UHGV virus genome: UHGV-1579991
Source of the DNA: a virus
Strand: one strand, 5' to 3'
DNA: 64,000 bases
Below are positions 9,870-62,373 of the stretch, in pieces (the stretch's first letter is position 1; each line of letters starts with the position of its first letter). The position numbers were made by a program, and so were the translations under genes. The notes beneath the pieces were generated by a model that had not been told where the DNA came from, did no database searches, and saw only the letters and a list, made by a program, of their open reading frames with translations.

Positions 9870-9894
9870 TGTATCAAATGTTTGTATTTGTAAG

Positions 9895-30446: not shown

Positions 30447-30453
30447 TTAATTG

Positions 30454-30524
30454 TTGAACTGTCTGGACTCGAACCAGAAATATATCATCCAAAGTGATAT
30501 GTGTTACCATTACACCACAGCTCA
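30454..30524 (-). tRNA. tRNA-Gln (anticodon TTG)
   Basis: Acceptor TGAGCTG/CAGTTCA, D-stem GTGT/ACAC, anticodon stem TATCA/TGATA, loop CTTTGGA, T-arm TCTGG-TTCGAGT-CCAGA. Confidence 0.75.
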
Positions 30525-38551: not shown

Positions 38552-38576
38552 TAGTTGTGTAACATTGCGCAAAAAG

Positions 38577-38604
38577 AAAGCCGAACTGAAATTCAGTTCG
38601 GCTT
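38577..38604. terminator. Bidirectional rho-independent terminator between convergent genes
   Basis: Stem aagccgaactga/tcagttcggctt with AAATT loop, flanked by A-run upstream and T-run downstream. Confidence 0.7.
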
Positions 38605-38629
38605 TCTTTTTGCATACGCTTATGCTATG

Positions 38630-41949: not shown

Positions 41950-44900
41950 TCAATTACATGCTGAATGTCCGCAGTTGGTGCATCGAACACAGCCGTCAAA
42001 CTTGACCATGTCACCACCGCATTCAGGACACTTTGCATACATCTTTGAGCCATCTTGAATGTGTAGTTTCAATGCGCGACCAATTGCTTTGCAGAATGTG
42101 CCAACAGATGCAAAGCTTTTTGCAGTTTGGTCGACAATTTCACCAAGGTCGATGCCATTGCGAAGCATCGTTGAGTACAGTCGAGTAATTGTTTGCTGCT
42201 CATCTGAACCAAGACGTTCTGAGATATTGTCATAGTGTTGCAAGAATGACAAATTATCACCAAGCTTGTAGTGCTTCTTATCAGTCTTTGTGATTGTCGT
42301 TTGTTCAATGCCTTGCAACTTGTCAAATTCGTCTTTGTCAAGTTCAAATGCAAAGATTTCATAGGGTCGACCATCATCACAACCTACAAGAATACACCAC
42401 TTACGCTTATACACTGATACACAATACACTGCAGCAGGCAATACAGGTTTTCGTTTTGAGCGATGACCAGACTGCAAGACATGCGACTTATCCTTAGACT
42501 GCTTATCATCTTTTACGAGAACACCTGCACGTGAGCCATCTCGATAAATTGTGCAACCCTTGCAGCCAGATTTCCATGCAGTCAGATAAATTTCACGAAC
42601 AAGCTCTTTTGTTGCAGAGTTTGGAATATTGACTGTTACAGAAATTGATGAGTCAATGTACTTTTGCAACGCGCCTTGCAGTTTAACCTTGCCAATCCAG
42701 TCAACATCTTCAGTAGTTGCCTTATAGTATGGTGATTGAACAAGCAATTCATCAATGACTGCTTGCGAAGCATTTGACAACCAAGCTTTGATACGAGACA
42801 TTTCTGCTTCTGACCATTCAATGCCAGTATCTTTGACAAGGGTGAATTTGTCATCACCAAGCTGCACTCGTTTGCAAATCCACTGCATCAATGGGTAGTG
42901 AACTACAGCGTATTCAATGAACTTGTCACCAGTAGTCTCATCAATGAAGTTGATGTCTGCTTCATTATCAACTGCAGTAGGCTTTCGACGACGTTTGTGC
43001 AGTGGCATAAAAACAGGTTCAATGCCAGAAGTTGTCTGAGTCATCAAAGCTGTGGTGCCAGTTGGCGCAATTGTTGTTGTGTTGATGTTTCGACGACCAA
43101 ATTGTTGATAAGTTGTGATGTGCTCATCATCAATCAGTTCAGATAACATACGCTGAATGAACTTTGACTGCACATCTGTGTCATAGTCGAATATTGCAAA
43201 TGAGCCACGAATCTCTGCCAAGTCAATTGACGCTTCATAAGTCGCCTTTACAAGCCATTGTTGCATAGTGACTGCGAAGTCAATTGACTCTTGTGAACCA
43301 TAGCGCAAGCCAAGCATTGCCATTGCATCGCCAAGTGCAAGAAAGCCCATGCCATATCGACGAGTATTTGTCAATTTGTCATAGACTTTATGCCACAAGT
43401 CAAGCTCAGTTTTCTTAATGTCAAATGATTCTTTGTCTGATTCAACCTTTGCAATGATTCGTTGAACTGCTTCAATTTCAAGCTGCACAAGGTCATCCAT
43501 GATGACTGCACAGTCATATGTATCTTTGTAGAATGCTTCAAAGTCAAATGATGCATCAGCAGTCCAAGGATTAAGCACATATGCAGTCAAATTGCGATGT
43601 GATAAAATGCAGCTTGCATATGCTGCAAGAGGCTGTTCACCGCACTGCCTGTTGTTTACAAATACTTGCATATGTCTGTCATTTGTATCATTGACAGCGT
43701 CAAATGACCCTACAAAAAAGTTGTGATAATCATCTACAGTGCCATTATACACATCTTCTACACCATCAAGTTCAACAGTGTGTACCCTATGATTGTAGTA
43801 ATCTGCAAACTGCTTAAACTTTCTGTATGACGCATGAATAGCAGCGTCAACATTGTTAGATTTGCATTCATTTGCAAATTCTTCATAATTTGGTCGTTTG
43901 CCAAGTTTTTGCTTTGCTGCAGTATATACAAGCACTTGTTCTTTAGACCATTTTGCTTGCTGAGCTGCGTGGCCGCATTCGGCAGAACAATATGCAACTT
44001 CTCTATAAAACCAGTGCGCCCAAAATTCAGAGCCGCAATGTTCGCAAATACGTTTAACATACACTTGTTTGTCAACAAATTTAGTGTCATAGCCCATATT
44101 GCGAACTTTAATTGCTGTTGCTATGCATCTGCTATCAATGCCAACTAAATCAGGATATTTAACATTAGCGCGCGTTGCACAATGACTTAAAAATGCATCA
44201 ATAGAGCCAAATGTTTCTACTAATTTATTGTACCTGTAGCCAGACCATGCAACAGTATTATTGCCTGGCGCATAGCGCATATAGTATTCTAATTCTTTGC
44301 GACTAAGGCCTCTTCCAACTTTTGCAGTGCATTGCGTAACATAGTCTACAATTGATTGCACAGTTGTATCAATATCATATCTGCCATTACGTTCACCAGA
44401 AGTAGATGCACTCATTTTAGCAGAATACTGTGCAAAACGTTCTGCATTTGCTTTAATTTTGTATATTGGATTGTTAGTGCCTCTACGTTCAAGTGCATGT
44501 AATGCATCATGCTCTTTTTTGCTTAGTACTTGTAAGTTATTTGGGTCATTGTTTAATGAATTGCCATCGATATGATGCACTACTGTGTGTGTAGCATCAA
44601 ACTGTTCAGCATGACAGTATTCTGCTATTAAACGATGCTCAAACTTATATACACCATTATTCAACACTGCATAATATGGTGCAGATTTGCTATTTGTTTG
44701 ATAGCTAAGCACTTCATCAAATGAACATTGTTGTCTTGCAATAATTGCTAAGCTATCACCATGCTGTAATTGTCGTGCTTCTTTGTATGTGCCATCTGTT
44801 AACTTAAACTTGTGATTACCTGTGCAACGAATAACATCACCAGAATCAAGTGTAACTTTGTATATTTGCACATTTGAGCCTGTTTTGCGTGGATGCCGCA

Positions 44901-45936
44901 TTTTGCGTACAACTACATTATTGTTGTCATCATAGCAATACACATTAACATCATCGCCAATATCTGCAAGTTCACGTATTGTCATTGTTTGTCTGCCATC
45001 AGCAAGCATAACTTTAGTGCTGCCAACAATGCATGGATTTGTTGAGCGCTCTTCATACATTTTACCGTATGCTTTCGAGTTCGACTCTTCCATAATGCGG
45101 TCCCAAAAGAACACGCCGGGTTCTGCAGATGCCCATACATTGTCAACAATTTTGTCAAATAATGCTTTTGCATCTGATGTCTTATGCAGCTCTTGGCCAT
45201 CAGAGCCACGCCAAATATGTTCAAACTGCTGTTCTGCAAGCACTGCACGCATAAATGCATCAGTAAGCTTGATGGAAATGTTTGCACCTGTGATTTTTGT
45301 CAAGTCTTTTTTTGCGTCAATGAACTTATCTGCATCAGGATGCTCAATTGACAATGACAACATCAATGCGCCACGCCTGCCATTTTGTGCAACTTCTTTT
45401 GTCGATGTTGAAAAGCGTTCCATAAATGACACGACACCAGACGTCGTAATAGCACTGTTATGTACTTCTACGCCTTCTGGGCGAATATGCGACAAATCAT
45501 GGCCAACACCACCACGACGTTTCATCAACTGAACTTGCTCTTCATCTGTTTTGAAGATGCCGCCATATGAATCTGCATCATTGCCTATTACATAGCAATT
45601 TGACATTGATGTGTAACCGCCAAGACCGATACCAGCCATTGGAGAACCACCAAGTACAAATCGCTTAAATGGCTCAAGCAAATATGCAAGTCGCTCTTTT
45701 GACAATACACGTTTGCCTGTCTGTTCTTCAAATTGTGATTCTATACGGTCAAATTCATTGACCCAGCGCTCATGCATATCAGACAATGAGTGTTCATACA
45801 AATTGTCTTTGTCATGATGCAAGTATTTTGACATGCATATGTCAGCAGCCATTGAGTCGCCCGTAAATTCATGCGTCAGTGTAGTGTGCACTTCAGCATA
45901 TTCAGGCGACCCAATTTGAATGGGACGTTTTGTCAT
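41950..45936 (-). CDS. nrdJ: Ribonucleotide reductase, class II (adenosylcobalamin-dependent, NrdJ-like), interrupted in-frame by an intein
   Basis: Start at MTKRP (ATG 45936-45934); extein motifs STNP...CGEQPL (reconstitutes NPCGE), TIYRDGSR, C-terminal CPECGG...CTNCG zinc ribbon; total ORF 1328 aa is far longer than a typical RNR. Confidence 0.75.
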   Translation of the reverse strand: MTKRPIQIGSPEYAEVHTTLTHEFTGDSMAADICMSKYLHHDKDNLYEHSLSDMHERWVNEFDRIESQFEEQTGKRVLSKERLAYLLEPFKRFVLGGSPMAGIGLGGYTSMSNCYVIGNDADSYGGIFKTDEEQVQLMKRRGGVGHDLSHIRPEGVEVHNSAITTSGVVSFMERFSTSTKEVAQNGRRGALMLSLSIEHPDADKFIDAKKDLTKITGANISIKLTDAFMRAVLAEQQFEHIWRGSDGQELHKTSDAKALFDKIVDNVWASAEPGVFFWDRIMEESNSKAYGKMYEERSTNPCIVGSTKVMLADGRQTMTIRELADIGDDVNVYCYDDNNNVVVRKMRHPRKTGSNVQIYKVTLDSGDVIRCTGNHKFKLTDGTYKEARQLQHGDSLAIIARQQCSFDEVLSYQTNSKSAPYYAVLNNGVYKFEHRLIAEYCHAEQFDATHTVVHHIDGNSLNNDPNNLQVLSKKEHDALHALERRGTNNPIYKIKANAERFAQYSAKMSASTSGERNGRYDIDTTVQSIVDYVTQCTAKVGRGLSRKELEYYMRYAPGNNTVAWSGYRYNKLVETFGSIDAFLSHCATRANVKYPDLVGIDSRCIATAIKVRNMGYDTKFVDKQVYVKRICEHCGSEFWAHWFYREVAYCSAECGHAAQQAKWSKEQVLVYTAAKQKLGKRPNYEEFANECKSNNVDAAIHASYRKFKQFADYYNHRVHTVELDGVEDVYNGTVDDYHNFFVGSFDAVNDTNDRHMQVFVNNRQCGEQPLAAYASCILSHRNLTAYVLNPWTADASFDFEAFYKDTYDCAVIMDDLVQLEIEAVQRIIAKVESDKESFDIKKTELDLWHKVYDKLTNTRRYGMGFLALGDAMAMLGLRYGSQESIDFAVTMQQWLVKATYEASIDLAEIRGSFAIFDYDTDVQSKFIQRMLSELIDDEHITTYQQFGRRNINTTTIAPTGTTALMTQTTSGIEPVFMPLHKRRRKPTAVDNEADINFIDETTGDKFIEYAVVHYPLMQWICKRVQLGDDKFTLVKDTGIEWSEAEMSRIKAWLSNASQAVIDELLVQSPYYKATTEDVDWIGKVKLQGALQKYIDSSISVTVNIPNSATKELVREIYLTAWKSGCKGCTIYRDGSRAGVLVKDDKQSKDKSHVLQSGHRSKRKPVLPAAVYCVSVYKRKWCILVGCDDGRPYEIFAFELDKDEFDKLQGIEQTTITKTDKKHYKLGDNLSFLQHYDNISERLGSDEQQTITRLYSTMLRNGIDLGEIVDQTAKSFASVGTFCKAIGRALKLHIQDGSKMYAKCPECGGDMVKFDGCVRCTNCGHSACN
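43645..45033 (-). mobile_element. Intein (about 463 aa) with Hint blocks and an HNH endonuclease domain, apparently ending in Gln
   Basis: Begins at Cys after STNP (CIVGSTKVMLADGRQTMTIRELADIGDD, block A); block B GNHKFKLTDG; HNH motif VVHHIDGNSLNNDPNNLQVLSKKEHDALH; zinc-finger-like CEHCGSEF...CSAECGH; block F VYNGTVDDYHNFFVG; ends ...VFVNNRQ immediately before CGEQ. Confidence 0.65.
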
Positions 45937-45973
45937 TGTAACAGTGCATTTAAGTGTTTTAACAGTTTTATGT

Positions 45974-46007
45974 ATAAATTGTACAACAATGGGCAAAATT
46001 TTGCATC
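45974..46007 (-). promoter_or_regulatory. Promoter-like conserved motif containing TTGTACAA upstream of RNR
   Basis: Minus-strand GATGCAAAATTTTGCCCATTGTTGTACAATTTATAC. Confidence 0.5.
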
Positions 46008-46061
46008 AACTCAAAACAGCCAAGCAATTCATTGCTTGGCTGTTTTGAGTTGATGCTGCGC

Positions 46062-47037: not shown

Positions 47038-48579
47038 TTATCTACTTGCAGAATCTCGCATTGAAATCATAACTTGCTCTTGAATTGATATAGGTATGAT
47101 GTTGAAGTCTGACACTTCAGCAACGTCATCAACATCAAGAGCTCTCAATGTATCTGTGTCACAGCAAGTCACAATGATTGACTTGCGAACATACTCATCA
47201 GCAACATTCCACAGCAGCTGACAAATTGCCCTATTATCAAGACAAATTTCATTGACTGTGCGAACAAGACTATACCATGCAGTCACATTATTGCGCTTCA
47301 GAGTTTCAAGCATATATCGTGCAAGCCCAAAACCTGCTACATATGACCCAGTCTGCTTATTGAATGACTCAATTGCGTATGCATCAAACAATGCTTCTGT
47401 CATCAAAGGCATTGCTGCAGTCATTCTGTAGTATCGATAGTCAACACATACAATCAACCAGTTAACATATGAATTGACTGCATATGCATGTGCCTTGAAG
47501 CCAAGGTCATTCAAGATTGTGCAGATGGCATTGTAAGTCGATTCATCAGCATTGCCAAAGTTTGCAAGCAGCTTAACTTTAAGAATGTCTTCGCCAATTG
47601 CATTTCTTGTAGCAGTGAATGATGGCATGCATGCAAAGCTTCTTTTGCAGATGTCTGTGATAAGTTGCTGTGCGTCATTTACAAGCTGTCTTGCAGCTTC
47701 AGCACGTTTTTCAGACTGTGCTTGATATTTTGGCCGCAACTGTGATGAGCCAGTTGCAGCGCCATATCGCATAGCAGCTTGCCAGTCCTTGAGATTATTT
47801 TGCAATTCACGAACATAGTCTGCAGCAACAATTGCAGATGGAGTTCTTTGTTGCTCGATTAGTTTGTTGATGTTTGCAAGCACATCTGATGCAAACATAT
47901 CTTTTGGCTTGACTCTTGCAATTTCAGCAAGCACTGCCGGTACACGAGCAATACCGCGAGGTTCATTTGAAACTACTACTGCATAGTCTACAAGCGCCTC
48001 ACATACAAGCTGCTCATCAACAAAGTACTCAGGATTCTGCACAGCATCTTCAACAACTGCAATCAATGTTGCTCTACGATTGCTGTCAGGTTTGTTGCCA
48101 AACAGCTCAATGTACAGCATGTCTGCTTGCTGATCTGTCATTGAACCTGCGATGTCAATTGTCTTTGCAAGTTTGTTAAGCAGTTCAGCTTGCTTACTTG
48201 ACAATCTGACTTTGTATGACGACTCTACGGCTTCTTTGACTGCTTTGAGTTTTCTGTCAATGTCAAGGCTGCTTTCATTGACATTCATGCCGACAATGCC
48301 TGCAGCATCAGTATTAAATTGCTCAACAGTTTCTGCTGCAGTTATTGGCAATGACACAATAGATTGTTTTGCATTTGCTGCAAGCTGATTGAGTCGAGTG
48401 ACTGCTTCAGAATCTTGCGCAACTGCAAGATATCTTACGCACAGCTCATCAATCTGTGAAAGATAACTTTGGGTCATGTTTATTGAAAAATTGTTGTTTC
48501 TTGACGAATAGCTGTTGGATGCAATTTGCGGAAACACTTCGACATTTCTAAGTTCCGATGATGACAACAATGTTTCCAT
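47038..48579 (-). CDS. Hypothetical protein, 513 aa
   Basis: Long ORF. Confidence 0.5.
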   Translation of the reverse strand: METLLSSSELRNVEVFPQIASNSYSSRNNNFSINMTQSYLSQIDELCVRYLAVAQDSEAVTRLNQLAANAKQSIVSLPITAAETVEQFNTDAAGIVGMNVNESSLDIDRKLKAVKEAVESSYKVRLSSKQAELLNKLAKTIDIAGSMTDQQADMLYIELFGNKPDSNRRATLIAVVEDAVQNPEYFVDEQLVCEALVDYAVVVSNEPRGIARVPAVLAEIARVKPKDMFASDVLANINKLIEQQRTPSAIVAADYVRELQNNLKDWQAAMRYGAATGSSQLRPKYQAQSEKRAEAARQLVNDAQQLITDICKRSFACMPSFTATRNAIGEDILKVKLLANFGNADESTYNAICTILNDLGFKAHAYAVNSYVNWLIVCVDYRYYRMTAAMPLMTEALFDAYAIESFNKQTGSYVAGFGLARYMLETLKRNNVTAWYSLVRTVNEICLDNRAICQLLWNVADEYVRKSIIVTCCDTDTLRALDVDDVAEVSDFNIIPISIQEQVMISMRDSASR

Positions 48580-49547: not shown

Positions 49548-51203
49548 TTATGCAAGCAATGTTTGCAGCATGTAGCAGCCTTTTGCATATGCGACAATTG
49601 CTTTTGCAGGGTTGTTCTTGATGTATGCAGGCAACTTGAGCCAAATCAATGCCACAAGCACTTTCTGTCGCAGCGTCAAATCAAGTTCATCAATGTTGTA
49701 GCCAATGACTTTTGCTCTGACGTCGCCATCAACATAATCGAATTGCTGATATGCTGACTGATTGAATACATCATAGCCAGACAAACCATATGCAAACTTT
49801 GCAATGTCATAATCGATGTCACCTGTCATCTTAACGTCACCAAAGTAGCCTCTGGGGTCAATGAACATGCATTTTGATGAATCTGCACTGAACATTGTAT
49901 TTGACGTATTCGGGTCACCATGAATGAATGACCAATTTTCGCATGCATAGTCAATTGAATCTTCTTGTGACAAGAAGAATCTTAACTTGCTCATCAGTTC
50001 ATCGAATGGCATCAATGCAATACCATTGAATGATTCGATGCCTGCTACAAGTGACTTGACTTCAGCATATCTTGCAATAGTAGTCTCAATGTACTCTTTG
50101 CGCATTGCGTCAATCATTTGCTGTCTGCTAACTGGCCAAATCTCGTCATTGTCAAGATTGCTTGCATGCAATTCATTGATTGACTGCTTGAATGTCGTCA
50201 TGCAGCCACGTGCAATTGTAGCATATCTACGCTCAATATCAACTTTGTTGAGGAACTGATGTACAGTCACTCCGTTAATTTTCGACATTTTGATGAAGTC
50301 TTCACCAGTTTCAAATATCGATGGAATGACTGTCGATTCTGCATTCATAGCATGACGATACCATTCTTGTTCTTTCTGAATGAGTGCCAAACCACGAGCA
50401 TTTGTAGCAGATTTCGTAACAATATCGCCATCAATGCTAATGCTATTGAAATACCGTACTTCATTATCACGTGCAGCCTTGACTGCTTCACTGACAAATG
50501 CTCCGCGTTCGCCATATGAATGACAGCCAGCAATTTCATATCTGTCTACAAATGTAACGTTGGTCATTAAATCAGCAAAATCAGCATTGTTATCATTATG
50601 CTGCATATCAATGACATTGTTATGAAACGCTGCAGGTACATAATATGCGCCAACAATGCCACTATGATATGTAGACTCATACAAATGGTCGAGCACATAT
50701 GCTTCTGCATCTGCATAAGACCCTACTTTGTAGAATGCATCAGTAGGAATGAGATGCAGTCTGCAATCAATGTCATTTGACGTGCAGCAAGTTATGCAGC
50801 CAGTTTTGAATTTGTCAAGTGGCAATTTAATGTCACCAAGCCATACGTCAGACCAGTGATAGAATACATTGCAGCCACCAATGTTGTTAGCAACATACAG
50901 TGCTACATCTGCGCATGCTTTTGCTGAGCCATCAGCTTTGTCATGCACAATAGTTGACAATTTGATATCTGGTGCAAATGCTGCAGCATGTTCATGAATC
51001 ATTGCTGCATGAGTGTCATTTGCACATGCAACAATGACTTCATCAAACTGTCGAGCATAGGATGTCAAAATTTTTGCGAGCACGGTTTGTTTGCCCGCAT
51101 TTACAAGAGTTTTAGGGATGTAATTGTTGCCAGTCATTGTTGACATGCGAGTGCCCAAACCACATGCAATGATTGCTAACACATTTGGATATTGATGAGA
51201 CAT
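49548..51203 (-). CDS. Bifunctional sugar-phosphate nucleotidyltransferase (N-terminal) and APH/choline-kinase-family kinase (C-terminal)
   Basis: Start at MSHQYPNV (ATG 51203-51201); NTP-transferase signature LAIIACGLGTRM...IPKTL; kinase motifs FIHGDPNTSNTMF and FIDPRGYFGD. Confidence 0.6.
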   Translation of the reverse strand: MSHQYPNVLAIIACGLGTRMSTMTGNNYIPKTLVNAGKQTVLAKILTSYARQFDEVIVACANDTHAAMIHEHAAAFAPDIKLSTIVHDKADGSAKACADVALYVANNIGGCNVFYHWSDVWLGDIKLPLDKFKTGCITCCTSNDIDCRLHLIPTDAFYKVGSYADAEAYVLDHLYESTYHSGIVGAYYVPAAFHNNVIDMQHNDNNADFADLMTNVTFVDRYEIAGCHSYGERGAFVSEAVKAARDNEVRYFNSISIDGDIVTKSATNARGLALIQKEQEWYRHAMNAESTVIPSIFETGEDFIKMSKINGVTVHQFLNKVDIERRYATIARGCMTTFKQSINELHASNLDNDEIWPVSRQQMIDAMRKEYIETTIARYAEVKSLVAGIESFNGIALMPFDELMSKLRFFLSQEDSIDYACENWSFIHGDPNTSNTMFSADSSKCMFIDPRGYFGDVKMTGDIDYDIAKFAYGLSGYDVFNQSAYQQFDYVDGDVRAKVIGYNIDELDLTLRQKVLVALIWLKLPAYIKNNPAKAIVAYAKGCYMLQTLLA

Positions 51204-51224
51204 TGTGTAGTGTTGTTTATATGA

Positions 51225-51258
51225 GAATATTGTACAATATGCATTGCTATTTTGCAAG
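51225..51258 (-). promoter_or_regulatory. Promoter-like conserved motif containing TTGTACAA
   Basis: Minus-strand CTTGCAAAATAGCAATGCATATTGTACAATATTC. Confidence 0.5.
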
Positions 51259-51504
51259 ATGACAATGCTTACGCCATACTGCAATTTCAACATCTGTAGC
51301 AAAATCAAAGTGCAAGCCATGCAATTGTTTCATGCCATATTGACGTCTTGCAATATACTTATTGCCAACTCGCTCAACAACGGAACCAATTTCTACTACA
51401 TTTTTAGAATGTCGTGGCTCATGTAATGGCACTCTGAATATGTATCTGCCATCTAATGTTGACATTATGTCACCATTATCAATTATGCCTGTTTGCCTGC
51501 TCAT
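51247..51504 (-). CDS. Hypothetical protein, 85 aa
   Basis: ORF. Confidence 0.35.
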   Translation of the reverse strand: MSRQTGIIDNGDIMSTLDGRYIFRVPLHEPRHSKNVVEIGSVVERVGNKYIARRQYGMKQLHGLHFDFATDVEIAVWRKHCHLAK

Positions 51505-51519
51505 TGTTAAAGCATCAAG

Positions 51520-52194
51520 TCATTTTTGAATGCCTACAAGTTCTGCAACAATTCTATTGTATGCTAATAAGTGCTTAGTTGCGTCATCAAGCAGCTTGTT
51601 AAATTCAAGATACTGCTGCAGCACTTTGTCATTATGCAATGACTGCTCAAGCGCAGCATAATCACCTGCAAACGGGCGATTCATTGACAGGCCAAAGTTC
51701 TTCGCACATTTAGCATAAAATGCATTGTACTCTGCAGCATCAATTGGTGTCGCGTCATGCGCATTAAGCGCACTTTTACTGAGCAATGGAATGCTGAGTT
51801 TTCTGCAACGAGTAAACTCATCTTTGTCGACATACAGCACAGAACAACGAACCACATGGTCTTCTGCATTCATGCCACCTGTCAACAAATCCATTTCCCA
51901 ATCGAAGCAAATGTTGTAGATGTACAGCATCACAGTTCGATGCTTGTTATCAACAAACTTCCAATATCGAGACTTTTTGCAGATAGCTTTGATATGCTGC
52001 AAGTCATGCATAAACTTATCATGCGATATCGCATCAAAGCGAGGCAATGATTTGTTGTCAATGAATGCGTTTGCTGCATCTGCACAACGTTTGAATTCTG
52101 CTTGATGCATATTCAGCTCTTCTATGCGCTTTGCTACAAGCGCTTCATATTCTGCTTTTGCAAGAGCAAGTCTTGCTTCATACAAACTTTGCAT
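51520..52194 (-). CDS. Hypothetical protein, 224 aa
   Basis: ORF. Confidence 0.45.
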   Translation of the reverse strand: MQSLYEARLALAKAEYEALVAKRIEELNMHQAEFKRCADAANAFIDNKSLPRFDAISHDKFMHDLQHIKAICKKSRYWKFVDNKHRTVMLYIYNICFDWEMDLLTGGMNAEDHVVRCSVLYVDKDEFTRCRKLSIPLLSKSALNAHDATPIDAAEYNAFYAKCAKNFGLSMNRPFAGDYAALEQSLHNDKVLQQYLEFNKLLDDATKHLLAYNRIVAELVGIQK

Positions 52195-52219: not shown

Positions 52220-52675
52220 TTAAAATTTGCCATCTGCTACTTGAAAGCATCGATAGCCAAGCTCTCGCCATTTAGCGACCATGGAATCGCGGTCTTCAAG
52301 CACAAATGCAATTTGTTGCAGTTCGTCTTCAGACAATGCTTCTACAAGCAATTCAGGTTTGACAAGCGTATCATGACGTTTATCACCATCTTTTCGCATA
52401 AGAATTTGCGGATTAACGATTCTGTAATCTGTATGCTGTGCAAGCCAAACTTCTGTCATTTGTCTGCAGCTTTCACGACGGCCTGTGCAGAATATGATTC
52501 TATAGCCAACTTGCTGCAAATCGCAAAGCAAGTCAAGCACAGTCATAATAGGCTTGTCTTCATAACAGTGTGCATAAAATGCATCCCAATCTTTGTTTTG
52601 CTGTTGAAGATATTTTAGACGGTCGCCAACTTTTGAAATTGTTCCGTCAATGTCGCATATGATGATATTTGCCAT
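52220..52675 (-). CDS. HAD-superfamily phosphatase
   Basis: Motif I IICDIDGT, motif II FCTGRR, acidic motif DGDKRHD / EDRD. Confidence 0.6.
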   Translation of the reverse strand: MANIIICDIDGTISKVGDRLKYLQQQNKDWDAFYAHCYEDKPIMTVLDLLCDLQQVGYRIIFCTGRRESCRQMTEVWLAQHTDYRIVNPQILMRKDGDKRHDTLVKPELLVEALSEDELQQIAFVLEDRDSMVAKWRELGYRCFQVADGKF

Positions 52676-52693: not shown

Positions 52694-52719
52694 AGGAAGA
52701 GCTCAATTGAGCTCTTCCT
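52694..52719 (-). terminator. Perfect hairpin downstream of 52750-53622
   Basis: aggaagagctc-AATT-gagctcttcct; core AGCTCAATTGAGCT shared with hairpin at 57019-57046. Confidence 0.45.
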
Positions 52720-52749: not shown

Positions 52750-53622
52750 TCAAGCTTGACTACTTTTGTTGATTACGAGATACTTGTATCGTTCTTTGAT
52801 TGTGATGTTCTTTGATTTTGCCGCCTCGATTTCTTTGCGTTCCTTGGAGGAATAGTTGAACTTAATGTAGTCGGAGAACAATTCGGGCTTATCTGCTACT
52901 TCATTGTTCTTGACTTCTTTTACAAGAGTTTGCTGAAACTCATTGATTGTAGTGAAACCAAGGAATGACTGGAACTTGTTAAGCGGAAACAGCTTATCTG
53001 TGTTGTCCTCGAATGTCGGGAATTCGTCGGAATACGTAATTTCGATTTGGTCTACGAAATATCTAAGTTTTTCCCAAGGTTCCTTGCCAATGAGGAGAAT
53101 GTTCTGATGGTCAAGTTTTTCCTCGAACATTTCCAGGAGACATTCGTATGATTTTACGAGACGAACTCCAGGATATGTAATTGATGCAATTGAACGAGGT
53201 TTGTGAGTCGTCTTGACTTCTTTATTGTATGTTTCCTCGTCGATGCAATAGATGTATCGCTTGACCTTGTCGTATTCTTTCGGAAGATAGTTGTTGTCAA
53301 GGAATTGCTTGTCAACTACAATGAAACTGAAAGGATAGAGTTCATTGAATCGTTGACGAAGCTGTTCTGTTGCAAGGAAGAAATGCGAGCCATCTTTTGC
53401 TGCAAATTCCATATTTGAATTGCATCCTGCATATGCAATGTATCTGTTTCGCTTCCATTTGAGGAATCGACTTACCAGGTTCTTTTCGAAGATGTCCTTG
53501 TATTTGAAGTAGGTGTCCCAGTACTCCTTAACAATTCCATCTTGCATTTTTCTTGACAATTTTGAATTGTCTACCGGCCTATCAGTAAAAACTGATGGTT
53601 TGTTTGCGTTGTATAATCCCAT
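52750..53622 (-). CDS. Hypothetical Lys/Glu-rich protein with codon usage unlike neighbouring genes; candidate transferase of the sugar module (function unassigned)
   Basis: 290-aa ORF; visibly different codon choice (frequent GAG, AAG, TTC, AGG-containing context) compared with the GCA/CAA-rich flanking genes. Confidence 0.5.
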   Translation of the reverse strand: MGLYNANKPSVFTDRPVDNSKLSRKMQDGIVKEYWDTYFKYKDIFEKNLVSRFLKWKRNRYIAYAGCNSNMEFAAKDGSHFFLATEQLRQRFNELYPFSFIVVDKQFLDNNYLPKEYDKVKRYIYCIDEETYNKEVKTTHKPRSIASITYPGVRLVKSYECLLEMFEEKLDHQNILLIGKEPWEKLRYFVDQIEITYSDEFPTFEDNTDKLFPLNKFQSFLGFTTINEFQQTLVKEVKNNEVADKPELFSDYIKFNYSSKERKEIEAAKSKNITIKERYKYLVINKSSQA

Positions 53623-53643: not shown

Positions 53644-53691
53644 TATTATTTATAGATATATAATACTACGACAATGCAAATTTTGCACTGT
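53644..53691 (-). promoter_or_regulatory. Promoter-like conserved motif
   Basis: Minus-strand CAGTGCAAAATTTGCATTGTCGTAGTATTATATATCTATAAATAAT. Confidence 0.55.
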
Positions 53692-53717
53692 CGTAGCATA
53701 AAAGTTTACACATTTTT

Positions 53718-54075: not shown

Positions 54076-55062
54076 TTATACTACAGCAGACAATTGTTGC
54101 AATGTTGACTGCATAACGTCATCAGTTACAAATAATTCGTTTTCAGTGAACACATAAAATTTTAAGCCATGTTGTTTTGCATATTGCACTGCTGCAGTAG
54201 ATTTTTTACGTACTGCATCACAAAATGCATATGCACATGGCTTAATTTCTATTAGCAATCCATATGTAGGCAAATAGAAATCTACAATGTATTTATGATG
54301 CCCATTGTATGGCACTGCAACAGTTTCATATTCATATTGAATGCCAAGACGTTCTAATGTCAATACAAAATGAGTTTCATAACTACTGCGTGTATGCAAT
54401 TGCGTTGGCATTGCAATAGAATGACATTTTACACACTGCTGAACAAGTACTAATGCGCGTTTGCCCTTACCACAGTTTTGCATTTTGCCATTTTGCATTG
54501 CTCGTGCAACACCTGCAGCAACGTGCATAGCAAATGATGGGTCTTCTTTATATTTTCGTCGTAACCCTGCAGATACACGAGACTTAAAGTCTGGGTCTTC
54601 TGCATAGCGTCTGTTCAAACCAGCAGTTACTCGTTGGCTAAATGTCGGGTCATTCACTACAGCAACCATTGCTTTTCGCGTGCCAATTGACACATTTTTA
54701 CATCGAGTTTCATCTCGCCATACTTTAGACATAGATGCTGTCCAGCGTTTAACATATTCAGGGTCATCAAACGCATGTTTTGCGCGACAGCATTTACAAA
54801 CATTATTAAAGTAGCCATATCTAATGCCTATGTATGCTATAGCAGCCCCACAATATTTGCAATGTTTTGCTGCGTCATCATACAATAGATATTTGTCATA
54901 GTAGTCTTGTTCATGCATATTAACAGATTGTAATGCTCTGCGTATTGTGCATGATGTACACCATTTGTTAAGCTCTGGTACATAATACTCATAACGTTGC
55001 TGCCCCTTTGGTGTTATTCGTGCAAGTCTTTTATATTCCGGATGATATGTAGGATTTTTCAT
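54076..55062 (-). CDS. Free-standing homing-endonuclease-like protein (family B): Cys-rich N-terminus, NUMOD3-like repeats, C-terminal PD-(D/E)xK core
   Basis: Repeats PTFSQRVTAGLNRRY / PDFKSRVSAGLRRKY / PSFAMHVAAGVARAM; nuclease core YIVDFYLPTYGLLIEIKP. Confidence 0.5.
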   Translation of the reverse strand: MKNPTYHPEYKRLARITPKGQQRYEYYVPELNKWCTSCTIRRALQSVNMHEQDYYDKYLLYDDAAKHCKYCGAAIAYIGIRYGYFNNVCKCCRAKHAFDDPEYVKRWTASMSKVWRDETRCKNVSIGTRKAMVAVVNDPTFSQRVTAGLNRRYAEDPDFKSRVSAGLRRKYKEDPSFAMHVAAGVARAMQNGKMQNCGKGKRALVLVQQCVKCHSIAMPTQLHTRSSYETHFVLTLERLGIQYEYETVAVPYNGHHKYIVDFYLPTYGLLIEIKPCAYAFCDAVRKKSTAAVQYAKQHGLKFYVFTENELFVTDDVMQSTLQQLSAVV

Positions 55063-55156: not shown

Positions 55157-55879
55157 TTAGTTATCATGCACAGCAGCTATATAACGGCCTTGCGAATCCA
55201 AATGAATCGCAGTTTGCATTGTAATTTCTGGCTGCGCTTTGTTGTGTTGTTGCTCTGCATCATATTCACGTCGCAACCCACCATTCGGATGACATAGGTA
55301 AAACCTATCAAAATCTGTACCCAACTGTTCAGCGACAGACAGCATAATATTGTCGCCTACAAGCTGAGATGCTAGCAGAGAATTTGTTGGGATTCGTGGA
55401 TTGCGTGAGTCCTCGTCAATTGCTGGCAATGATACAAGCAAGTCTGCCCAAGCATTCATATCAGTGACCTTGCCACCGGCAAAGTTGATGCCAATGATTT
55501 GACAATTCGGTGCAAGCAATTCACGATGTTCACGAAGATATGTCATTGCAGTTGCAAGTTCAGATGTGTTGCCAGTTTTGCTGAATGCTACAATAACATC
55601 GTTGTTTCGAATCATGCCAAAGTCACCATGCATTGCATGCACTGCATCAAAGAATGATGCGTTCAATGACAAGCAATAACATGTTGCAGCAAGTTTTTCA
55701 CAGCAATGCACATTTTTGCCGATGCCAGTGAACAACACTTTGCCATCAGACTTCAATGCATTTGCAATGATATCTGCTGCAATGCCAAGAACATCATATT
55801 GCGCATCTGAAATGTTGTTGTGCCATGCTACAAGCGATTCAACTGATGCAGCAATGCCTTTGTGTACAAGTGTTTTCAT
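55157..55879 (-). CDS. SIS-domain sugar-phosphate isomerase, arabinose-5-phosphate isomerase (KdsD/KpsF)-like
   Basis: VLFTGIGKN, FFDAVHAMHGDFGMIRNNDVIVAFSKTGNTSEL, PTNSLLASQLVGDNI, FYLCHPNGGL follow the KdsD-type SIS pattern. Confidence 0.6.
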   Translation of the reverse strand: MKTLVHKGIAASVESLVAWHNNISDAQYDVLGIAADIIANALKSDGKVLFTGIGKNVHCCEKLAATCYCLSLNASFFDAVHAMHGDFGMIRNNDVIVAFSKTGNTSELATAMTYLREHRELLAPNCQIIGINFAGGKVTDMNAWADLLVSLPAIDEDSRNPRIPTNSLLASQLVGDNIMLSVAEQLGTDFDRFYLCHPNGGLRREYDAEQQHNKAQPEITMQTAIHLDSQGRYIAAVHDN

Positions 55880-55897: not shown

Positions 55898-56578
55898 TCA
55901 AAAAAACTTAAGTTTTGATAGCATTTCAGTGTCTTGTTCTGTGTTGATGCCAAGCTCTTGCATGACATCAAGCAATGCAGACCATAATTGCTCATATGAT
56001 TTGCCGCTGTTCATAACAACAGCGTCAACAAACAACTCGTCGATATATTGTTCACTTGAATGATTGATGCTTTGCTTGACATCGTCATTGATAATTTTAA
56101 TGAGTTTGAAGCCTCTTGAACGCAATGCGGTCGCTTCATTTGGATATCGACAATCGCCAACACAAATAAGAGCTTCATTATGACAATTGTCAAGTCGATA
56201 CAGCAAACTGTTTACAAAGAAGTCTTCACCATACAGTTTCTTGAGCGCATCTGAAACATCAAGATGCACATTGCGAATCGATGAACCTGCAAACTCTACA
56301 AAGTGTTTCTGTTTGAATGCATTGTTATGCAAGTCTTGCAAATTGTAGCCCAGTGTACTTGCAATAAATGCTTTCAGTGGCTTTGCAAAGCACTCATATG
56401 CAAGATTGCAGCCACATGACCAGTATGGATTCGCTTCAATTTGCTGTAAAGTTGATGTGTAAATGCCATCAACTACAGTGAACTTGCATTTAGTCATGAC
56501 TCGAATCATCGCCCAAGCCAAATCTTTGCCTACGCCTGCATGACCAACAAGCGCAATTTTTGTTATGTCATCATTCAT
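55898..56578 (-). CDS. P-loop kinase, dNMP kinase-like (T4 gp1-like)
   Basis: Walker A KIALVGHAGVGKD and overall arrangement resembling T4 deoxynucleotide monophosphate kinase. Confidence 0.5.
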   Translation of the reverse strand: MNDDITKIALVGHAGVGKDLAWAMIRVMTKCKFTVVDGIYTSTLQQIEANPYWSCGCNLAYECFAKPLKAFIASTLGYNLQDLHNNAFKQKHFVEFAGSSIRNVHLDVSDALKKLYGEDFFVNSLLYRLDNCHNEALICVGDCRYPNEATALRSRGFKLIKIINDDVKQSINHSSEQYIDELFVDAVVMNSGKSYEQLWSALLDVMQELGINTEQDTEMLSKLKFF

Positions 56579-56960
56579 TGCACCACTGTTTAAGAGTCAC
56601 AAAATTGTTGAAGTCTGCATAAAAGTCATCGCCACCGTTAAGCATTGCGACATTCTCAAGTTCATTGAGAATGATTTGCTTATCAATGACTATTGCAAGA
56701 GCGTCAAAGTCTTCTTTTGATTGCAAGTCAAGTAGCACAGGATGACCTTTGAGTCTTGTAGTTAATGTTGCTGGCAGTCTATGCACAGACTTCTTTTTCT
56801 TTGACTGCGTAGGATGTTTTGAGCGCTTTCTTGTAGCAGTCAGCTGAATATCATAATCAATTTCAAGCAAACCTGCATCTTGCATTACAAAATTGAGATT
56901 AACATGCACAGGATGCTTTTGCTGAATGTCTATGAATTCTTGTAATTTGTCGTTTATCAT
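56571..56960 (-). CDS. Hypothetical protein (start at MINDKLQEF)
   Basis: ATG 56960-56958 just downstream of promoter motif. Confidence 0.4.
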   Translation of the reverse strand: MINDKLQEFIDIQQKHPVHVNLNFVMQDAGLLEIDYDIQLTATRKRSKHPTQSKKKKSVHRLPATLTTRLKGHPVLLDLQSKEDFDALAIVIDKQIILNELENVAMLNGGDDFYADFNNFVTLKQWCNE

Positions 56961-56973
56961 TTGAAATGCATTT

Positions 56974-57014
56974 GTATATGATAATTGTACCACGCATGCA
57001 TCAACTTTGCACAC
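56974..57014 (-). promoter_or_regulatory. Promoter-like conserved motif
   Basis: Minus-strand GTGTGCAAAGTTGATGCATGCGTGGTACAATTATCATAT. Confidence 0.55.
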
Positions 57015-57018
57015 AAAA

Positions 57019-57046
57019 CAAGACCAGCTCAATTGAGCTGGTCTTG
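57019..57046 (-). terminator. Rho-independent terminator
   Basis: caagaccagctc-AATT-gagctggtcttg followed on minus strand by TTTTGTGTG. Confidence 0.6.
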
Positions 57047-57064
57047 CGGTCATATGTAGACTTC

Positions 57065-59851: not shown

Positions 59852-60874
59852 TCATTGTTGTTTATGCCAGCCATATGATGCCTGACCAGCATCATACACT
59901 TCTACAAAACCATGGTCGTACATAAAATCTTCATTACGAGTGCCCTTGCCACCATTAGTGCCAAGAATACGGTCTGCACCATGCATAAGTAGCATGTTAT
60001 TTGTGACATGTTGCTTTGTCAGCATATTGAACCAGTGTTTGCTATATGACAAACCAAGACCATCAAAGCCCAGCTTTGTGTACACACCACCGTCAAACTT
60101 GCTTAAATCACAATATGATAACACAGATTCAGGGTCATATGTCTTGATAAAGTGCTTAAAGATTCGTTCAGCACCACCAACAACTTTGGTTGCTGCACAA
60201 AGACGTAGCAATTCATATTGATAGCGCTTATTGTATCGTGGACGACCAAATGTCATAAGTTGATGAATGACATAACCACCAAGCAACTCAAGTGGATGAC
60301 CTTCAATCAACGCAAGATTGATAAAATTGCCTGAGCACTTGCCTTGCAAATGATGTTCAATCAAAAATTGATTTGCAGTATACTTGTCAATTTCAACAAC
60401 TTTAAGCTTGCGAGCATATACAATCTTTGATTTGTCTACGATTTGATGCTTGATGTGATTGATAACTTTCTTGGCGTCATCCCAATCCCACACATGAATA
60501 CAATGAAAGCCTGCAGCTTTTGCAATGTCTGTTTTCTTTGCATGAACATCACAAGGCAAATGTGCATCTTTTGCATCATGCATAAACAAGTGCTCAAATG
60601 AATGCGTACTGTTATGCGAAAATGCAGGATTGATGTTAATGACAATATTGTCATGTCGAAAATCGAAGACTTCATCACCAATGACAAAGTTGCGCTCAAA
60701 ATCTATACCGACATGTTTGAGCAACACTTGATGCCACACGTCTTTATAGGCTGATTCAAGCTTGCTTAGCTCATCACAGTTTGCAATGTTTTTGTAACGT
60801 TGAATAGCAGCATCAAAGTCAAGATTGACTTCAGCGTAGTCTGCATTTTTATCATAGTGAAATTTTGAGCTCAT
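59852..60874 (-). CDS. Homing-endonuclease-like protein with N-terminal PD-(D/E)xK-like domain related to the C-terminal domain of family A
   Basis: Start at MSSKFHYDK (ATG 60874-60872); IVININPAFSHNSTH...GFHCIHVWDWDD. Confidence 0.45.
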   Translation of the reverse strand: MSSKFHYDKNADYAEVNLDFDAAIQRYKNIANCDELSKLESAYKDVWHQVLLKHVGIDFERNFVIGDEVFDFRHDNIVININPAFSHNSTHSFEHLFMHDAKDAHLPCDVHAKKTDIAKAAGFHCIHVWDWDDAKKVINHIKHQIVDKSKIVYARKLKVVEIDKYTANQFLIEHHLQGKCSGNFINLALIEGHPLELLGGYVIHQLMTFGRPRYNKRYQYELLRLCAATKVVGGAERIFKHFIKTYDPESVLSYCDLSKFDGGVYTKLGFDGLGLSYSKHWFNMLTKQHVTNNMLLMHGADRILGTNGGKGTRNEDFMYDHGFVEVYDAGQASYGWHKQQ

Positions 60875-60890
60875 GCGTATAATTTTGTGT

Positions 60891-60935
60891 ATATAATTAT
60901 TGTACAACATGCAAATGCACATTGCATTTGATACA
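60891..60935 (-). promoter_or_regulatory. Promoter/operator element shared by homing-endonuclease genes
   Basis: Minus-strand GCAATGTGCATTTGCATGTTGTACAATAATTATATAC; near-identical element at 62041-62085. Confidence 0.5.
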
Positions 60936-60965: not shown

Positions 60966-62027
60966 TTATTTTGTATTGCTACGCGTCATTGTTAAATGAC
61001 CGCAATCATACACATCAACTTCTGTTTTGCCAAGCATACATGTATGACAATTTATTTTGAAATCTGCTGCAGTGTAATCAGGATAGTTTAGCGGAGATTC
61101 TTTTGACAAATCAATTTCAATTGTGTCAGTAGTTTTAAGTTGTTCAGTGCCTGCAATGATATCTGCAATAAGATTGATAACTTCTTCTTGTGAATCCCAA
61201 TCAAACACAGTTATGCAACGATAGCCTGCATCAAGTGCAAGTTTTGTTTTGTTGTAATGGTATTGAGCACCAATAACATTGTTGTCTTTTGCTCGACCAG
61301 TTAAATATGCAAAACTAACAGTGCAGTTGTGCGTAACTGTTGGACAAATTTCTATAAGTAACTTTGCAGGCTCATACTGCAAATCATATGTTTGATTATT
61401 GATGTTAAACTCGTACTGTGTATCAATTGCCAACTGTCGTAATAACGCATCATGCCACATCATATTACATTTAGAAATTGTTTTGGATGACAATCTGCAT
61501 TGCGGCAATTGACATGGCCAATCTACGCCGTACATTTGTTGTGTTGTTTGACGCATTTTGTTAACATCACCAAAATGATTGCCATATCGATGCTCTTTGG
61601 TTTTAAGCGACTGCTCAATATTGACATTGCCTACACAACCATAACGTTCAAGTTTTGTTGCAGCAGTTTTGCTAACATCACCATGCCCATTGCCAAATTT
61701 GGCGACTTTAGTTGCAAGTATTTTATGACTTGGGCCAAATGCATTGCCATACAATTCTTGTTTAGTCGCAAGCATTTTGTCGATATTACAACCAGCGCCA
61801 TAAGTGTTATGCATAGTTTGCATACGTTGTCGAATAAATTTTGGCACAGATAAAGGACTTTCTACACCATATTTGCGTAAGCAACTGATTTTGCATGCGT
61901 ACTTTTGCTTGATGACAGAATGTGCATTTCGACGTCCTATGTAAGTGTTTTCTGATGTAGCAGCAAGCTCTGCATCTCTAAGAACTTCAAGTGCAGCAAT
62001 TCGTGCTTCAATTTCTTCAGATGTCAT
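60966..62027 (-). CDS. Free-standing homing-endonuclease-like protein (family A paralog)
   Basis: N-term EEIEARIAALEVLRD, YG repeats (ELYGNAFG, ERYGCVGN, HRYGNHFGD), C-term LLIEICPTVTHN...GYRCITVFDWD. Confidence 0.5.
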   Translation of the reverse strand: MTSEEIEARIAALEVLRDAELAATSENTYIGRRNAHSVIKQKYACKISCLRKYGVESPLSVPKFIRQRMQTMHNTYGAGCNIDKMLATKQELYGNAFGPSHKILATKVAKFGNGHGDVSKTAATKLERYGCVGNVNIEQSLKTKEHRYGNHFGDVNKMRQTTQQMYGVDWPCQLPQCRLSSKTISKCNMMWHDALLRQLAIDTQYEFNINNQTYDLQYEPAKLLIEICPTVTHNCTVSFAYLTGRAKDNNVIGAQYHYNKTKLALDAGYRCITVFDWDSQEEVINLIADIIAGTEQLKTTDTIEIDLSKESPLNYPDYTAADFKINCHTCMLGKTEVDVYDCGHLTMTRSNTK

Positions 62028-62040: not shown

Positions 62041-62085
62041 GATAATTGTACAACATGCAAATGGCGTTTGCATTTGATGCAACAA
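62041..62085 (-). promoter_or_regulatory. Promoter/operator element shared by homing-endonuclease genes
   Basis: Minus-strand GCAAACGCCATTTGCATGTTGTACAATTATCAATATG. Confidence 0.5.
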
Positions 62086-62144: not shown

Positions 62145-62373
62145 AATGAATACGTTTGTCAGAAACTGTCAATGGTGCAATCGCTTGAAGAGTTAGCTGA
62201 ACAACTTGTTGATGCGATTGCTGCATTGGTGACTACCAAGCAGCCCATTGAACATTGGATTCGACATCAACGTCTTTGTGGTTGTTGTTAAACTCCCCAA
62301 GCCAGCAAGTATCATTTAGCAAGTTTCCAAACTTAACGTACTTGTCGTTCCCCGGCTTGGGTGGCGCAGGTTG

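Follow-up and report, generated by a model that had tools for sequence, protein, structure and literature searches.

Sugar-hypermodified cytosines shield phage DNA from restriction enzymes and CRISPR nucleases, and gene clusters for arabinosyl-5-hydroxy(methyl)cytosine are reportedly also covered in work by Mahler et al. in 2025 (cited in PMC13326640). Among the closest described systems are those of RB69, DLP3, HY126 and related Straboviridae, where the arabinosyl-hydroxy-cytosine pathway, comprising an arabinose-5-phosphate isomerase (API), AfhE and AfhF, was worked out only in 2025-2026, in enterobacterial and Acinetobacter phages; the published clusters contain arabinosyltransferases of the GT-B fold and no protein with a dihydrofolate reductase (DHFR) fold (PMC13326640). 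The current study concerns a 64,000 nt stretch of the virus genome UHGV-1579991, referred to here as the window, and a gene on its minus strand between positions 52750 and 53622, termed the target gene below. As in the clusters of RB69, DLP3 and HY126, homologues of sugar-activation genes are grouped on one strand in the window, whereas in this locus it is a gene for a DHFR-fold protein that is the constant partner of AfhE. Our leading but still tentative interpretation, held as a whole with somewhat less than even confidence, is that the target is a DHFR-fold protein recruited by neofunctionalisation into a module for cytosine-sugar hypermodification of DNA.

The target is the sole open reading frame (ORF) at its position, starting with an ATG at 53622 and ending with a TGA at 52750. 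An original prediction, made from the nucleotide sequence, had placed it inside a putative sugar-nucleotide module, and this location is borne out by its neighbours, which include genes for an isomerase, a HAD phosphatase, an AfhE-like enzyme and a deoxynucleoside monophosphate (dNMP) kinase:

52750-53622, minus strand: target coding sequence, DHFR-fold protein of 290 amino acids (aa)
49548-51320, minus strand: AfhE-like bifunctional enzyme with an N-terminal sugar-1-phosphate nucleotidyltransferase and a C-terminal sugar kinase (Pfam NTP_transferase, phrog_4098)
52220-52675, minus strand: HAD-family phosphatase, candidate analogue of AfhF (pentose bisphosphate 5-phosphatase), matching PF25109 HAD_PNKP (E 9.5e-31) and PHROG polynucleotide-kinase/phosphatase families
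55157-55879, minus strand: API of the SIS/KpsF-GutQ type (phrog_5670; TIGR00393, E 2.5e-19)
55898-56578, minus strand: dNMP kinase, T4 gp1-like (phrog_139, E 5.5e-27)
54076-55062, minus strand: endonuclease-like gene, 328 aa (Endo I/TnsA-like, phrog_22215), between the isomerase gene and the target

API and a bifunctional enzyme of the AfhE type (arabinose kinase and uridylyltransferase, or UDP-arabinose pyrophosphorylase), a pair expected of an Afh-type module, are both present in the window. API matches RB69 gp55 (E 6e-14) and the KpsF/GutQ protein of the Chryseobacterium phage MA9V-1 (38% identity), and the AfhE-like protein matches RB69 gp52 (E 1.5e-29) and gp53 (E 1e-7), with full-length homologues in 372 phage records, including those of Dhaka- and Mosigviruses. 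The HAD protein is a candidate AfhF analogue by analogy with the published pathway (PMC13326640); its best match is to the PNKP-phosphatase subfamily, and RB69 gp51 has no tblastn match in the window. The role proposed for the dNMP kinase is the phosphorylation of modified deoxycytidine monophosphate (dCMP). No tblastn match to the endonuclease-like gene was obtained in the sister strains L016 and L017, where 952 of 987 alignment positions are gapped, and because it is missing from these two strains it is regarded as a mobile insertion outside the pathway, its presence/absence polymorphism being typical of a homing endonuclease.

Pfam scans of the 64-kb window identified no ThyA-homologue 5-hydroxy-dCMP synthase. 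Two ThyA homologues are encoded by MA9V-1, namely a canonical protein that is 55% identical to Escherichia coli ThyA (MA9V1_040; L012 40762-41706), and MA9V1_088 (L013 26818-28161), a protein of 447 aa encoded beside a nucleotide kinase, which carries N177D (dCMP-type), keeps D169 and possesses a C-terminal extension of approximately 170 residues. The signature of 5-hydroxy-dCMP synthases is N177D together with D169N (PMC13326640). Unlike the enzymes of the RB69-type clusters, MA9V1_088 lacks the D169N signature, and its sequence suggests an enzyme of the hydroxymethylase type rather than the D169N hydroxylase type, and hydroxymethyl-cytosine chemistry in MA9V-1.

Synteny was examined in ten contigs, eight of metagenomic or IMG/VR origin (L002, L005, L009, L016, L017, L018, L020 and L022) and two representing the Chryseobacterium phages MA9V-1 and MA9V-2, all of which carry a syntenic orthologue of the target. 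In every one of them an AfhE homologue is located zero to four genes downstream of the orthologue, the genes in between being subject to turnover, and this is the linkage to nucleotide-sugar genes that would be expected of a glycosyltransferase. The longer of the related contigs share the gene order capsid gene, Asp-protease-like gene, target and AfhE. In contig L002 the AfhE orthologue carries NTP_transf_3 and APH domains. The next gene has a weak resemblance to MazG that falls short of the curated Pfam cut-off (E 0.0015), and its product may be a dCTPase.

Concerning the nature of the protein itself, the original prediction had left its relationships to homology and fold searches, of which the former returned nothing and the latter indicated a DHFR-like fold. 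No match to the target was found in Pfam, NCBIfam or PHROG, and its family profile retrieved none of the PDB sequences at E values up to 10. Two independent structure models (predicted local distance difference test score, pLDDT, 70-77) matched only DHFR/RibD reductases, without similarity to GT-A or GT-B folds, and display the eight-stranded sheet and four helices of the DHFR alpha/beta fold; among the 50 BFVD fold matches listed, almost all of the named ones are DHFRs or DHFR-domain proteins. The layout of the protein, and the position of a second DHFR-type gene of the phage, are as follows:

Target residues ~40-237 and 273-286: core; residues 1-39: disordered; residues 238-272: Lys/Glu-rich insert containing FSDYIKF
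6839-7342, minus strand: canonical DHFR of the phage (PF00186, E 1.2e-50), with all hallmark residues kept relative to E. coli and human DHFR

The target shares its fold with the DHFR/RibD C-terminal reductase superfamily (PDB 3ix9, 2w3v, T4 Frd 1juv and RibD 7lrh) but differs from its members in the disordered N-terminus of approximately 40 residues, in an insert of approximately 35 residues between the last two strands that bears the invariant FSDYIKF, the most conserved motif of the target family, in a C-terminal domain of approximately 110 residues that is present in half of the family and has no structural match, and in the absence of a Pfam DHFR_1 or RibD_C match. By fold, the target is therefore in the DHFR/RibD superfamily, while by every DHFR sequence criterion tested it is a non-member. 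The family is tiny: it accounts for nine clusters out of 5.8 billion, and an exhaustive profile search of 1.84 billion proteins yielded 16 representatives. Of 50,697 phage genomes, only those of MA9V-1 and MA9V-2 carry it, and a nucleotide search of these genomes with 8 kb around the target gave no match. It is a family of T4-like large phages, known from isolates on Chryseobacterium and from gut and other metagenomes.

Because the phage encodes a canonical DHFR at 6839-7342, the target constitutes a second, divergent DHFR-fold protein; in MA9V-1 and MA9V-2 a canonical DHFR is likewise present, two genes away from the target orthologue. Alignment of the target family with the DHFR alignment using hhalign reached a probability of 3.5% (E 0.012), a low-confidence result that is nevertheless colinear with the predicted secondary structure. 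In this low-confidence alignment the catalytic Asp27 of E. coli DHFR (helix B) corresponds to Leu88, a conserved hydrophobic position, the NADPH motif G43-R44-x-T46 corresponds to D104-K/R-x-F107 (D104-K105-x-F107 in the target), and G95-G96 corresponds to G179-K180, for which the family displays G, S, D or T at 179 followed by K, E or D at 180, the second glycine never being present. Positions 86-87 hold no conserved acid across 21 members, and Gly179 is not conserved across the wider family; both NADPH pyrophosphate motifs are intact in the canonical DHFR. Near-invariant positions of the family are N59, R91, E94, D104, F107, Y123, Y159, E167, Y188 and, within FSDYIKF, F249, S250 and I253. 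The low-confidence alignment suggests that the DHFR motifs have been lost from the target, which may represent a DHFR-derived scaffold that keeps the cleft and would not bind NADPH or folate in the canonical manner.

The window stems from a T4-like large phage with a guanine plus cytosine (GC) content of 40.4% and nearly all genes on the minus strand; two close relatives in IMG/VR are each approximately 175 kb in length. Two of its genes serve as landmarks here:

62374-63957, minus strand: major capsid protein (Gp23-like/type), the reference for expression-linked bias
4779-6770: large terminase, T4-type

Other window genes encode a gp44-like clamp loader, topoisomerase II subunits, an NAD-dependent ligase, an intein-containing ribonucleotide reductase and seven tRNAs. 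By tblastn, homologues in the very distant phage MA9V-1 exist for just 15 of the 59 window genes, among them the target. Orthologues are 47-52% identical to the target, as compared to 31-38% for neighbouring genes, and only the capsid protein, at 70-75%, is more highly conserved. Relative to L016 the target gene shows 20 nucleotide differences and no amino acid changes, and relative to L017 it shows 18 nucleotide differences and two amino acid changes, while the API gene differs between strains at 64 positions with approximately 25 amino acid changes. Presence and absence in relatives was considered as an indication of recent acquisition, and the target, far from being patchily distributed, is present and syntenic in all of them. 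The target is a genuine, ancestral, vertically inherited gene under very strong purifying selection.

The claim that codon choice in the target is unlike that of its neighbours holds. For each of 51 genes, the log-likelihood of its synonymous codons was calculated under the pooled usage of all other genes and compared with 2000 resamplings in which the amino acid sequence was fixed; the target ranked second (z = -4.68), behind the capsid gene (z = -11.0) and ahead of the next gene (-2.8). It favours TTC, AAC, ATC, CTC, TCC, GGA and CCG where the window favours TTT, AAT, ATT, TTG, TCT, GGC and CCA (Phe TTC 82% vs 35%; Leu CTC 32% vs 7% and TTG 9% vs 31%), the deviation being concentrated in Phe, Asn, Ile, Leu, Ser (TCC), Gly (GGA) and Pro. 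GC at third codon positions is 0.457 versus approximately 0.36, and overall GC (0.389) is ordinary. The tetranucleotide distance of the target (z = +3.56) ranks 11th among 632 sliding windows, and the ten higher values belong to capsid-region windows starting at 62201-63101, so that by k-mer composition, too, the gene can be told apart from its neighbours. The description of the protein as Lys-rich is likewise accurate, with a Lys content of 11.7% versus 6.9% in other genes, the highest among ORFs of at least 100 aa; since its net charge is just +4, Glu and Asp offsetting Lys, and the pI of the family ranges from 5 to 8.9, the protein is not of the basic DNA-binder type.

Recent horizontal acquisition, by which the original prediction had explained this composition, is contradicted by the evidence. 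The deviation does not set the target apart from every native gene class but runs in step with the deviation seen in the phage's own capsid gene (r = 0.52, against a background mean of 0.06 with a standard deviation of 0.25), and it recurs in the orthologues. A preference for C over T in two-fold NNY codons is commonly attributed to translational selection, and the C fraction in these codons is 0.64 in the target, 0.66 in the capsid gene and 0.36 at the median. The orthologues in L002, L005, L009 and MA9V-1 rank first to third of their own neighbourhoods in an index of C-ending bias, and in L002 and MA9V-1 the orthologue is second behind the capsid gene alone. Because of the capsid-like bias, its recurrence in orthologues, the synteny, the above-neighbour conservation and the synonymous divergence (20 of 20 differences from L016), we attribute the deviation to expression-linked selection on an ancestral gene. 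These codon statistics point to translational selection of the kind acting on the capsid gene, and not to foreign origin, and the target is probably highly expressed. More generally, codon atypicality here marks expression level, and in phage genomes a comparison with the capsid gene is a worthwhile internal check before an unusual gene is ascribed to horizontal transfer.

Codon and composition signals were also noted elsewhere in the window. ORF 27415-28134 (minus strand, 239 aa, no family match) deviates in the same direction as the target (r = 0.61) and has the third highest C fraction (0.51); it also carries a fuller upstream motif, TGCAAA(A)TTTG-N-GTAGTA, which occurs just twice in the window, and may share an expression class with the target. 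ORFs 51-356 and 504-1076, on the plus strand within positions 1-1100, have a GC content of 0.46-0.47 and are among the most k-mer-deviant sequences outside the capsid gene. A cluster of seven tRNAs at 28909-30524 (minus strand; Gly-TCC, Thr-TGT, Glu-TTC, Ser-TGA, Leu-CAA, Pro-TGG and Gln-TTG) reads mostly A-ending codons, and TTG, which are the preferred codons of the phage, and ARAGORN called a putative permuted transfer-messenger RNA at 28909-29351.

The target had also been described as flanked by related palindromic hairpins, and the elements relevant to this description are:

52694-52719, minus strand: downstream hairpin with a perfect 11-bp stem and AATT loop (free energy -19.2 kcal/mol, z -4.1), no U-tract
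57019-57046, minus strand: terminator-like hairpin with a 12-13 bp stem, AATT loop and U-tail (free energy -27.1, z -6.6), after the Asp-protease-like gene
53663-53699, minus strand: true upstream flanking hairpin with a 17-bp stem (free energy -23.9 kcal/mol, z -8.5), between an upstream 112-aa ORF and the target
53660-53671, minus strand: promoter-like -10 element TCGTAGTATTAT, conforming to the recurrent motif TTGTWGTAYWAT and located 5' of the target ATG

The perfect hairpin reported after the gene is indeed there, 30 nt past the target stop codon and 18 nt ahead of the ATG of the HAD gene, and is followed by UUCAUAAG; it possesses the stem without a U-tract and is absent from the terminator-like sites listed for the window. 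The intergenic region containing it is 100% conserved in L016 and 98.6% in L017. The recurrence of its core is equally real, as the 14-mer AGCTCAATTGAGCT common to both AATT-loop hairpins occurs exactly twice in the window, the second copy being at 57026-57039 (two copies versus 0.03 expected; none of 100 shuffles reached two), and the chance of such a hairpin pair sharing five further stem bases is estimated at approximately 0.006 over six possible pairs. Of the two, only the hairpin at 57019-57046 scores as an intrinsic terminator, with 13 pairs and the U-tail UUUUGUGUG, the tail being given as UUUGUGUGCA. What does not stand is the flanking arrangement: this second hairpin is located 3.4 kb and five genes upstream of the target, and the hairpin that actually flanks the gene upstream, which overlaps the promoter-like motif, is unrelated in sequence. 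Perfect intergenic hairpins number about a dozen in the window, several with AATT or ATTG loops, and the two hairpins carrying AGCTCAATTGAGCT are therefore considered members of a general population; common descent or a shared motif is plausible for them, and nothing ties the pair specially to the target. No Rfam family reached threshold at the hairpins, including that at 53663-53699.

The motif TTGTWGTAYWAT occurs at 16 sites versus 5.3 expected, 15 of them on the coding (minus) strand and mostly just 5' of ORF starts, and it probably represents, on these sequence grounds, the -10 region of a phage promoter class. Related upstream motifs are present at the orthologous loci and at genes 12111-12554 and 27415-28134. 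A perfect TATAAATA upstream of the target was considered as a T4-type late promoter and rejected, the motif having just two occurrences in the 64 kb, no more than chance would give, and GTGCAAATTTG was dismissed as a promoter element as it is not enriched (11 sites versus 7.9 expected). The promoter-like element and the stem-loops on either side would fit an autonomous, strongly expressed unit. In these features, as in its compositional deviance, the target resembles phage morons and other recent accessory genes; unlike them, it is syntenic in all relatives, outconserves its neighbours and has a bias matching that of the phage's own capsid gene.

Several observations on such elements elsewhere in the window can be added. 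Further minus-strand sites of TTGTWGTAYWAT include 12579-12590, 28218-28229, 45978-45989 and 62045-62056, and the listed TTG/ATG ORF starts at 35300, 45996, 46923 and 26008, which lie upstream of a TTGTWGTAYWAT site, may be mis-called. ORF 56571-57053 (minus strand) overlaps the hairpin at 57019-57046 with its first 12 codons and more likely starts at Met32, around 56960. Long perfect intergenic hairpins are found at 6777-6836, 46003-46056 and 38569-38613 (stems of 28, 25 and 21 bp, respectively), the first of which separates the terminase and DHFR genes, these being convergent, and probably terminates transcription in both directions. A 23-nt hairpin, CAAAACAATATAAAATTGTTTTG, is present in two identical copies, 33 nt apart (9913-9935 and 9946-9968), at the start of ORF 9501-9953.

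The original prediction had put the target forward as the missing transferase of the module. A classical glycosyltransferase is not what the DHFR fold indicates, while the linkage to AfhE and the failure to recognise any other transferase keep a non-canonical role under consideration. The target resembles the T4 alpha- and beta-glucosyltransferases (GT-B) in its proposed role and in its position near nucleotide-sugar supply genes, but its fold is neither GT-B nor GT-A and it has no similarity to the RB69 transferases gp3 and gp46:47. RB69 gp3, gp46 and gp47 gave no tblastn match below E 0.8 in the window, the complete MA9V-1 genome or the related loci. When nearly every window ORF of 100 aa or more was scanned against Pfam, no glycosyltransferase emerged, a result that carries no weight as RB69's own transferases are also without a Pfam match, and the same scan of 77 unannotated MA9V-1 proteins, likewise negative for glycosyltransferases, is devalued by this failed positive control. 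In the control itself, RB69 gp3 and gp46:47 (L015 2520-3620 and 24597-25497) had no Pfam-A match at E values up to 0.01, and since they escape Pfam, such screens cannot rule out phage DNA glycosyltransferases. Two neighbouring ORFs were considered for this role and set aside: 47038-48579, a conserved neighbour for which three homologues are known but neither a domain nor a PDB match, and 51520-52194, which has no match anywhere.

We are highly confident of the following parts of our interpretation: (i) that the gene is real; (ii) that its product has a DHFR fold; (iii) that it was inherited in the manner described; (iv) that its codon bias has the direction reported; and (v) that it is linked to AfhE. 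That the target belongs to a cytosine-sugar hypermodification pathway is, in our judgement, slightly favoured over the contrary. Within such a pathway it would act after sugar activation as a ligand-binding component, and not as a folate reductase. The near-invariant Asp104, perhaps with the help of a metal, would hold a nucleotide-sugar (UDP-arabinose) in what remains of the NADPH groove, the replacement of glycine by Asp at the N-terminus of helix C being suited to metal-bridged diphosphate binding, and a modified (hydroxylated) cytosine nucleotide or base would occupy the relic pterin pocket, with Arg91 and Glu94 on helix B; the protein would then perform or assist pentose transfer. DHFR holds the NADPH nicotinamide and pterin C6 face to face for hydride transfer, and because of this arrangement a DHFR descendant with an NDP-sugar and a pyrimidine in the old sites would have the right geometry for group transfer. 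These ligand assignments and the transfer role are speculative and, on balance, unlikely to be correct as drawn. The target is a candidate for the transferase because a phage that makes an NDP-pentose for its DNA must encode one and the target is the only constant companion of AfhE in the clade; that it is the transferase itself we nevertheless consider speculative and unlikely, and it is doubtful that the family consists of DNA pentosyl (arabinosyl) transferases built on a DHFR scaffold that form, with AfhE, a minimal two-gene activate-and-transfer module.

A number of points weigh against our interpretation. A DHFR fold is not known from any glycosyltransferase. Gene order is broadly the same in the window phage and MA9V-1, and proximity to AfhE could thus simply have been inherited with it; furthermore, 370 AfhE-carrying phages are without the target family, meaning that AfhE does not need it. 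The window covers 64 kb of a genome of approximately 175 kb, and a GT-B transferase could be encoded in the other ~110 kb, the Pfam screen for glycosyltransferases being uninformative in this respect. The residue mapping depends on the hhalign result of 3.5% probability (E 0.012) and on models of pLDDT 70-77, and ligand binding by the target is itself predicted from such models. In addition, the capsid-like bias suggests an abundance above what an enzyme usually needs, stoichiometric rather than catalytic; this last point is countered by a rough estimate according to which thousands of enzyme molecules would be needed, given approximately 70,000 cytosines in each genome and a burst of hundreds of genomes.

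Alternatively, the target may be an abundant non-catalytic pseudoenzyme derived from DHFR, either a structural or virion component or a scaffold in a nucleotide-synthesis complex, its proximity to AfhE then reflecting gene order only. This is possible, if unlikely, and several observations favour it: in codon bias and conservation the target is surpassed only by the capsid protein, both in the window and in four further lineages; the two genes share a strand, with the target invariably a few kb downstream; in a distant member of the family (P0022) the preceding genes are T4 gp13-like or otherwise apparently structural; the catalytic and NADPH motifs are apparently lost; and the genomes are broadly colinear. 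It fits less well with the near-invariant polar residues N59, R91, E94, D104, Y123, E167, Y188 and S250, which line the would-be DHFR cleft and are more reminiscent of a ligand site than of lattice contacts, or with the persistence of the target-AfhE pair while the genes between them turn over freely; no published virion proteomics was found for MA9V-1 or MA9V-2.

The same cleft could belong to a true reductase of the DHFR/RibD superfamily that depends on NAD(P)H but has diverged very far, acting on a pentose phosphate or nucleotide-sugar, on a pyrimidine, or on flavin for a ThyA-like hydroxylase. Every structural neighbour of the target is an NADPH-dependent reductase, and RibD-type enzymes reduce a pyrimidine-attached ribosyl group. 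RB69-type 5-hydroxy-dCMP synthases are flavin- and O2-dependent and require reducing equivalents, and an unexplained 'sugar or heterocycle reductase' is listed for the RB69 cluster, yet the known arabinose pathway of API, AfhE and AfhF has no redox step (PMC13326640). Given that the glycine motifs for the pyrophosphate, with which helices C and F begin in DHFR, appear replaced (G43 by Asp104) and are not conserved in the family, that no conserved acid aligns to the position of D27, and that the MA9V-1 ThyA homologue keeps D169, making it of the folate type and not the D169N flavin-hydroxylase type, we regard a reductase as doubtful.

High inferred expression and linkage to a DNA-modification module would also be compatible with a role in counter-defence, such as inhibiting or decoying the type IV restriction enzymes that attack sugar-modified DNA, by a protein made abundantly and co-inherited with the module, and phages with glycosylated cytosine do need inhibitors such as T4 IPI* (PMC13326640). 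Such proteins are usually fast-evolving and patchily distributed, whereas few genes of the region evolve as slowly as the target, which has been retained in phages with just 15 of 59 genes in common, and this function is accordingly improbable. Finally, a recently acquired foreign gene for a conventional glycosyltransferase completing the sugar module, as first proposed from the atypical codon and k-mer composition, the moron-like promoter element and flanking hairpins, and the position in a module with no recognisable glycosyltransferase nearby, is very hard to reconcile with syntenic orthologues in every related lineage, conservation above that of the neighbours, a bias common to the capsid gene and kept in orthologues, purely synonymous divergence between strains and the lack of similarity to RB69 gp3 or gp46:47.

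Candidate mobile elements other than the endonuclease-like gene beside the target are also present in the window. The large subunit of ribonucleotide reductase (41950-45996, minus strand, 1348 aa) contains an intein with an HNH endonuclease (Pfam Intein_splicing, HNH_3), and 782 gapped positions in the compared part of this gene in sister strains suggest that the intein insertion is variable between strains. Two minus-strand ORFs, 59852-60922 and 60966-62027, are located between the capsid gene and a DUF5856 gene. The former matches the homing-endonuclease PHROGs phrog_3339 and phrog_559; the latter has a Pfam DUF7487 match only and no PHROG, and its identity is 57% in L017 versus 99% in L016. 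A DUF7487 match is also found in ORF 3445-4719 and, below threshold, in 16935-17867.

Employing a combined analysis of gene order, composition and predicted structure, it was possible to recognise in the window the sugar-activation half of the arabinosyl pathway in a very different T4-like group, one associated with the human gut, other metagenomes and Chryseobacterium, and without a recognisable transferase. What is new is a DHFR-fold family, probably neofunctionalised, with a conserved link to phage DNA glycosylation genes. Were a role in DNA modification to be true, an ancient reductase scaffold would have been recruited to a new job, and the family would possibly represent a new type of DNA glycosyltransferase; were the target the transferase itself, glycosyltransferases would gain a further fold class, and phage DNA a hitherto undescribed route to hypermodification. 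If it has no role in modification, the target would still be an apparently abundant core protein of these phages that calls for an explanation.

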